DNA from: Escherichia coli
Lineage (GTDB): Bacteria; Pseudomonadota; Gammaproteobacteria; Enterobacterales; Enterobacteriaceae
Length of the DNA: 64,000 nt
Strand: one strand, 5' to 3'
Assembly: GCF_003334785.1 (NCBI RefSeq)
Contig: NZ_QOWV01000004.1
This document shows positions 60,212 through 60,449 of this stretch, piece after piece. Made by a program: the position numbers and the translations under genes. The first letter of the stretch is position 1. The number at the start of each line of letters is the position of its first letter. A model generated the notes under the pieces. That model was given only the letters and a program-made list of their open reading frames with translations. It had not been told where the DNA came from and did not search any database.

Positions 60212-60328
60212 TGTGATCATCCTTTCGCAATTGACTGAAACACATTAATTTTTTTAATAAAAATGGTACGCATCACACATTTAACTGATTCATGTAACAA
60301 ATCATTTAAGTTTTGCTATCTTAACTGC

Positions 60329-60449
60329 GTGCGGCCTGAAAAACAGTGCTGTGCCCTTGTAACTCATCATAATAATTTACGGCGCAGCCAAGATTTCCCT
60401 GGTGTTGGCGCAGTATTCGCGCACCCCGGTCTAGCCGGGGTCATTTTTT
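60329..60449 (+). ncRNA. arcZ: Hfq-dependent sRNA ArcZ
   Basis: gtgcggcctgaaaaacagtgctgtgcccttgtaactcatcataataatttacggcgcagccaagatttccctggtgttggcgcagtattcgcgcaccccggtctagccggggtcatttttt: recognised sRNA with terminal hairpin ccccggtctagccgggg plus U-run; 3' end overlaps arcB stop. Confidence 0.7.

Follow-up and report, generated by a model that had tools for sequence, protein, structure and literature searches.

The DNA analysed here, a window of 64,000 nucleotides from Escherichia coli, is colinear with K-12 positions 3290249–3354248 and differs from them at seven of 64,000 positions, none of which falls within 60221–60449. At this site the small RNA gene arcZ (60329–60449, plus strand) lies between two genes of the minus strand. 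The first, elbB (59558–60211), is its divergent upstream neighbour and bounds the 117-bp intergenic region in which the arcZ promoter lies. The second, arcB (60441–62777), is convergent with arcZ and encodes a sensor histidine kinase of 778 amino acids, as given by both the open reading frame list and the RefSeq annotation. ArcZ has been known since 2001, and has also been called SraH and RyhA.

The sequence-only reading of this window had placed ArcZ at 60329–60449 on the plus strand and had proposed the Rfam covariance model as a check. The model search, the K-12 annotation and sequence identity all bear the assignment out. A scan of the whole window gave a match to RF00081 (ArcZ) at 60329–60436 (+), scoring 120.8 bits against a gathering score of 66 (E = 4.1e-27). 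The match is strand-specific and full length, spanning model positions 1–106 of 106; since the model stops inside the terminator, the 3′ end of the RNA is not defined by it. The interval 60200–60470 is 100% identical to E. coli K-12 MG1655 (NC_000913.3), where arcZ (b4450, ‘small regulatory RNA ArcZ’) at 3350577–3350697 corresponds to 60329–60449, a length of 121 nt, and arcB (b3210) at 3350689–3353025 corresponds to 60441–62777 on the minus strand. Colinear with K-12 and matching its annotation, this is thus the arcZ gene of the reference, present in a strain that resembles K-12. Of 5426 complete E. coli genomes, 5417 contain a 501-bp query segment taken around the site, always with elbB on one side and arcB on the other, and no match to this query was found in the other 9 of the 5426. 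The elbB–arcZ–arcB segment gave 5473 matches in these genomes altogether, one of them on a record labelled as a plasmid.

The sequence-level features that define ArcZ are all present, namely the Rfam score, the core with its RNase E site, the terminator and the arcB context. We found no evidence that contradicts the identification, and the weak points are confined to its cis-antisense part. It is virtually certain that 60329–60449 (+) is the arcZ gene of a K-12-like E. coli chromosome, with the proposed processing, targets and relation to arcB. The feature is already known and annotated, and finding it here changes nothing in itself. What the present analysis adds is modest and consists of three cross-species counts, which concern the sharing of the U-run with the Lys-Lys codons of arcB, the conservation of the promoter block, and the rarity of a mirrored arcB terminator.

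For the comparison between species, loci were collected from a species-representative genome collection with the exact 23-mer at window positions 60400–60422, giving at least 120 loci from Enterobacteriaceae, Erwiniaceae, Yersiniaceae, Morganellaceae and other families. Because the loci were chosen by this exact pattern, the invariance of columns 60400–60422 is not counted as evidence in what follows.

The sequence-only reading had drawn its feature from 60221 to 60449. The right-hand limit is indeed the end of the RNA, but 60221 is not its start: it is the first base past the longest elbB open reading frame, and 60221–60328 is elbB–arcZ intergenic and promoter DNA. The transcription start is the G at 60329. 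Read from the sequence, an extended −10 element, TGcTATCTT (60314–60322, plus strand), ends 6 nt before this start, and a conserved −35-like hexamer, GTAACA (60294–60299, plus strand), with four of six matches, lies 17 bp upstream of the −10. A generic sigma-70 scan of 60100–60600 found no promoter. This consensus scan missed the arcZ promoter because the two hexamers together match at only 8 of 12 positions, and the assignment was made manually, on the basis of the extended −10 element and of conservation. Aligning 114 sequences from a range of Enterobacterales species showed the columns of the extended −10 to be 80–99% conserved. In the block just upstream of the −35 hexamer (60271–60293, plus strand; about −58 to −36 from the start), most columns reach an identity of 90% or more over the same 114 sequences, which exceeds the conservation of the 5′ half of ArcZ. 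Taken as a whole, the promoter block at 60271–60322 is mostly conserved at 90% or above, again higher than the 5′ 65 nt of the RNA that it would serve.

The upstream block contains TCACA at 60273–60277. In K. pneumoniae, mutation of TCACA, or truncation of the promoter upstream of −41, results in less pre-ArcZ; TCACA was proposed as a CRP half-site, and activation by CRP has been proposed there instead of repression by ArcAB, which was reported to be absent (PMC11322559). According to the review literature, arcZ is repressed by phosphorylated ArcA when oxygen is scarce and is most strongly expressed in aerobic stationary phase (PMC11331407). On the strand opposite the −35 hexamer GTAACA there is a conserved TGTTA, an ArcA half-site motif, and a site over the −35 element would suit ArcA; the consensus searches were negative or at chance level. 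The 15-bp ArcA box consensus GTTAATTAAATGTTA, allowing up to 3 mismatches, had no match anywhere in the window, and TGTTA-N6-TGTTA, allowing up to 2 mismatches, gave 46 matches in the window against 41.6 expected, none of them in the arcZ promoter.

The 121-nt primary transcript (60329–60449, plus strand) is supported by the Rfam match, by the identical K-12 ncRNA annotation and by Term-seq, which places a strong plus-strand 3′ end at K-12 3350696, equivalent to window 60448 (PMC7815308, supplementary file 1). Its fold has a z-score of −2.7. When RNAalifold was applied to 115 distinct ArcZ sequences, a 5′ stem-loop, a small hairpin and the terminator were all recovered. The 5′ stem-loop, SL1 (60348–60388, plus strand), is part of the Rfam consensus structure and has arms at 60348–60355 and 60381–60388 around an A/U-rich loop. 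Five of its pairs were recovered on the 115 orthologues, with up to four pair types at a position (for example UA 47, UG 24, CG 20 and GC 10). Two stem pairs of the terminator also covary (G-C in 76–79, A-U in 21–23 and G-U in 15–16) while remaining paired in 115 of 115 sequences. The small GCGC/GCGC hairpin lies inside the 23-mer search pattern, so its invariance is uninformative.

In the 3′ half, the sequence GA/UUU at 60392–60396 (plus strand) fits the published RNase E consensus RN|WUU (PMC11331407, citing Chao et al. 2017) and stands directly before the conserved core. A cut at the predicted position, 60393/60394, leaves exactly 56 nt to 60449, the length of the 56-nt form of the literature. 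Hfq-bound ArcZ and the processing by RNase E of an RNA of ∼121 nt to this active form are reported for the identical K-12 sequence (PMC11331407). The active RNA would thus occupy 60394–60449 (plus strand), as deduced from the predicted cleavage site and the terminator, and its computed fold, at −20.6 kcal/mol, consists of the small hairpin and the terminator. The seed or core, CCCUGGUGUUGGCGCA (60397–60412, plus strand), exactly matches the sequence named in the 2024 review, in which 330 of 335 RIL-seq interactions use the core region (PMC11331407). On either side of the search pattern, at 60394–60399 and 60423–60429, all of the columns that lie outside it are at least 90% identical across species.

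The Rho-independent terminator (60423–60449, plus strand) was found by a terminator scan and consists of a stem at 60423–60441, the spacer CA and a T6 run at 60444–60449. In small RNAs of this class, such a terminator with its U-tail is the module to which Hfq binds. The terminal hairpin ccccggtctagccgggg followed by a U-run, which had been noted from the sequence alone, is present as CCCCGG-TCTAG-CCGGGG at 60424–60440; in the scan the stem is longer, with 8 pairs of which 6 are G-C, and after it comes CATTTTTT. The hairpin lies directly past the arcB stop codon, and as a perfect inverted repeat it can also form in RNA of the arcB strand. It could then be asked whether the hairpin and T-run are only a terminator or 3′ UTR element of arcB, with no independent small RNA gene at the site. 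The T-run follows the stem on the plus strand only, however, the arcB strand having GCGCGAAUAC at that place, and a conserved plus-strand promoter lies 100 nt upstream. The Rfam match is specific for the plus strand, and the Term-seq tables contain the strong plus-strand end at 60448 but list no 3′ end on the arcB strand (PMC7815308). This explanation is refuted by the Term-seq data together with the strand on which the U-run lies, and we attach practically no probability to it.

Equally negligible is the chance that the segment encodes a small protein. A 62-codon open reading frame at 60263–60451 (+), running across the promoter and the whole of ArcZ, does appear in the open reading frame list, but its first codon precedes 60329, the mapped start of transcription. 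Moreover, the 5′ half is poorly conserved among species and rich in indels, whereas the RNA structure shows covariation, and the conservation peaks at the seed and the terminator without a codon pattern. The 62-aa frame was rejected on its start before 60329, the indels, the RNA covariation and the K-12 annotation of the segment as an ncRNA.

At the junction with arcB, the minus-strand frame ends in AAA AAA TGA (Lys-Lys-stop), with the TGA at 60441–60443 and the two lysine codons at 60444–60449. As the arcB frame extends from 60441 and the annotated end of ArcZ is 60449, the two overlap by exactly 9 nt (60441–60449), just as had been proposed for the last 9 nt of ArcZ and the arcB stop codon region on the opposite strand. 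The overlap is 8 nt if the mapped 3′ end at 60448 is used instead. The last base of the terminator stem together with the 2-nt spacer constitutes the ArcB stop codon, and the U-run constitutes, on the other strand, the last two lysine codons. With the stop codon on the stem base and spacer, and the T-run serving as codons, changes in the length of the T-run alter the C terminus of ArcB. An overlap of about ten bases between the 3′ end of ArcZ and arcB is described as usual in the dedicated 2024 review (PMC11331407).

A convergent arcB was found beside arcZ, by tblastn with the ArcB C terminus, in all 119 loci with enough flanking sequence among the matches listed. With the overlap counted from the last T of the run up to the base at which the arcB stop codon begins, it is 9–11 nt in 101 of the 119 loci among the matches listed (9 nt in 14, 10 nt in 43 and 11 nt in 44). 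ArcB ends in ..KK* in every one of these 101, because a T6–T8 run is read as Lys-Lys (Glu-Lys-Lys with T8). Among the same listed matches, the overlap is 2 nt in 4 of 119 loci (Morganella, Pluralibacter, the unclassified Enterobacteriaceae isolate RIT691 and one Citrobacter). It is absent, with a gap of 0–78 nt, in 10 of 119 (eight Pantoea, one Mixta and Chimaeribacter arupi). In those ten loci arcZ is still convergent with arcB, and ArcB lacks the KK end in seven. The U-run thus doubles as the Lys-Lys codons of ArcB in most Enterobacterales, and the overlap is dispensable in Pantoea and a few others.

A further 4 of the 119 loci among the matches listed have an aberrant arcB frame, suggestive of frameshifting or decay; they are those of Ca. 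Erwinia dacicola, Ca. Pantoea haifensis, Pantoea sp. 1.19 and Enterobacter sichuanensis. In the first three, the frame extends 23–117 nt into arcZ, where it closes with an unrelated C terminus, and the ArcZ core is intact; this suggests an arcB that is frameshifted or decaying, as might be expected in host-restricted symbionts. The Enterobacter sichuanensis locus is longer by one T than the otherwise closely similar locus of Enterobacter vonholyi, giving a predicted 4-residue extension into the hairpin, and this extra T could be real or could be a homopolymer sequencing error.

The Rfam gathering score was reached by only 5 of 14 diverse orthologous loci, so Rfam alone under-counts ArcZ outside Enterobacteriaceae, Yersiniaceae and some Erwiniaceae. 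Nine loci have the exact 23-nt ArcZ core beside arcB with none of them at the RF00081 gathering score; they belong to Xenorhabdus, Photorhabdus, Proteus, Providencia, Morganella, Mixta, Chimaeribacter, E. mallotivora and Ca. E. dacicola. RF00081 under-detects ArcZ where the 5′ half has diverged.

These features can be assembled into a proposed mechanism. A sigma-70 promoter with the extended −10 element at 60314–60322 would give the 121-nt primary transcript from 60329, which would end at the intrinsic terminator (stem 60423–60441, U-run 60444–60449). At low oxygen, transcription of arcZ would be repressed by phosphorylated ArcA, as described in the literature. Hfq would bind the RNA, and RNase E would cut it at GA|UUU (60393/60394) to release the active 56-nt 3′ fragment. 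The seed CCCUGGUGUUGGCGCA of this fragment would then pair in trans with many mRNAs, increasing the translation of rpoS and repressing, among others, flhDC. The functional steps are all taken from the literature, in the form of reviews and later papers, while the identity, the boundaries, the covariation of the structure, the conservation of the promoter, and the synteny with its overlap come from this analysis. The control of rpoS and motility that the sequence-only reading had ascribed to this RNA agrees with published work on the identical sequence, where rpoS is activated and flhDC is repressed (PMC11331407). Reported pairing partners of the seed are the rpoS leader (where activation includes protection from Rho), flhDC, mutS, eptB, tpx, CyaR and others (PMC11331407, PMC10948607). 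The biological importance of ArcZ is established: it ties oxygen and energy sensing by ArcB/ArcA to RpoS, motility and virulence traits.

The last part of the proposal concerns arcB itself. The two genes are arranged tail-to-tail, and ArcZ and arcB mRNA reportedly lower each other's levels in E. coli (PMC11331407, PMC4152358, PMC10948607). Combined with the repression of arcZ by phosphorylated ArcA, this mutual lowering would close a feedback loop. The claim, made from the sequence, of a built-in antisense relation between the redox sensor and the small RNA is upheld to the extent of this reported mutual repression, but the pairing mechanism behind it is speculation in the 2024 review (PMC11331407). 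We infer that the mutual repression would operate either through RNA–RNA pairing or through convergent transcription across the shared 3′ ends. By itself the 9-nt overlap of coding sequence is too short for a useful duplex, and it is dispensable in some lineages. Real complementarity requires either an arcB transcript that continues through arcZ or arcZ transcription that reads into arcB. In E. amylovora, ArcZ was without effect on an arcB translational (5′) fusion (PMC6895013), a result that fits an effect exerted at the 3′ end of arcB, or no effect at all.

In a rival account, ArcZ is real but its overlap with arcB has no regulatory meaning. The overlap would be an accident of the packing of convergent genes, with a U-run that happens to read as Lys-Lys-stop; the relevant action of ArcZ would be in trans, and effects on arcB would be indirect or due to transcriptional collision. 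The shortness of the shared stretch (9 nt, or 8 nt to the mapped end at 60448), its absence from 10 of 119 species (gaps of 0–78 nt) and its reduction to 2 nt in 4 others among the matches listed all favour this account. So do the unaffected E. amylovora fusion (PMC6895013), the description of the antisense mechanism as speculative (PMC11331407) and the scarcity of a mirrored hairpin with a U-run inside arcZ (19 of 114 species among the matches listed). On the other hand, the ArcZ and arcB transcripts of E. coli reportedly regulate one another negatively, and a convergent adjacency kept in 119 of 119 species from several families, among the matches listed, suggests more than chance linkage. 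The arcB 3′ UTR could, moreover, cover arcZ even where the coding sequences do not overlap. On balance we consider a meaningless overlap possible but rather unlikely.

If the arcB transcript does continue through arcZ, a candidate for its end is the complement of SL1. On the arcB strand, 60339–60388 contains the SL1 complement hairpin followed by ACUGUUUUUC, with UUUUU at 60339–60343, 4 nt from the stem in E. coli. This mirrored hairpin and U-run constitute a weak candidate for an arcB transcript end, which would fall at about 60339, in Escherichia, Salmonella and Citrobacter. As a conserved arcB terminator the combination was rejected, since a comparable hairpin with a T-run at a distance of up to 4 nt occurs in only 19 of 114 species among the matches listed, and there is no minus-strand Term-seq end. 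The terminator scan of 60100–60600 found no intrinsic terminator on the arcB strand.

The opposite possibility is that arcZ transcription reads into arcB. A region of Rho-dependent termination has been mapped at K-12 3351461 on the plus strand, or about window 61213, which is antisense to arcB and 764 nt past the arcZ terminator (PMC7815308, supplementary file 2). There, downstream reads rise from 20 to 418 (∼20-fold) on Rho inhibition, with a Rho score of 15.2 (PMC7815308). This region may reflect read-through from arcZ, and it is equally compatible with unrelated antisense starts inside arcB. One could imagine that arcZ and arcB are coupled by antisense transcription that escapes the arcZ terminator and proceeds through the 3′ third of arcB until it is stopped by Rho, rather than by the 9-nt overlap or by a duplex with mature ArcZ; we regard this as improbable. 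Were it true, the oxygen-dependent arcZ promoter would tune arcB by transcriptional interference or by a long antisense RNA, and the sharing of the Lys-Lys-stop with the U-run would fix both genes in register across Enterobacterales.

Compared with known systems, the locus is closest to K-12 arcZ (b4450), with which it shares the gene, the promoter, the flanks, the processing site, the seed, the terminator and the 9-nt arcB overlap. There is no difference inside the gene, and the chromosome differs at 7 positions in 64 kb. DsrA, RprA and ArcZ are alike in being trans-acting and Hfq-dependent, in having intrinsic terminators and in opening the inhibitory hairpin of the rpoS leader (PMC10948607). 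Unlike DsrA and RprA, ArcZ is active only after RNase E has processed it to a 3′ fragment, and it responds to the Arc system, and hence to the oxygen or energy state. It also differs from both in being physically interlocked with the gene of its own upstream sensor kinase. GadY and the gadX 3′ UTR form a convergent, 3′-overlapping cis-antisense pair in E. coli. The arcZ–arcB locus resembles this pair in having a small RNA opposite the 3′ end of an mRNA whose level it is able to affect, with regulator and target in one locus. In contrast to GadY, the main conserved function of ArcZ is pairing in trans, and its seed is not complementary by design to the cis target. Its reported action on arcB in cis is negative, by a speculative mechanism, and the overlap with the coding sequence is only 9 nt.

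The remainder of the window contains seven other Rfam matches above the gathering score, as expected for this region of K-12. They are the SraG small RNA (20979–21150, plus strand), for which the K-12 annotation begins at 20935, 44 nt upstream of the match, and six features on the minus strand: the S15 (rpsO) leader (21380–21494), naRNA4 (23007–23077), the rimP leader (27776–27876), the tRNA genes metY (27968–28041) and leuU (31827–31910), and the greA leader (38563–38684).

Of the seven differences from K-12 MG1655, the one at 60821 turns codon 653 of ArcB, GTG (Val), into ATG (Met), giving V653M, 372 nt from the overlap. Five others are at 902, 8144 (yraR D152A), 8651, 26129 (synonymous, in nusA) and 53632 (synonymous, in lptA). 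The last is at 27995, where the plus strand has C instead of T, inside the initiator tRNA gene metY on the minus strand. The K-12 metY presumably differs by one base from metZWV, a difference that we take to be absent from E. coli B, and the window may come from a strain without this K-12-specific metY variant.
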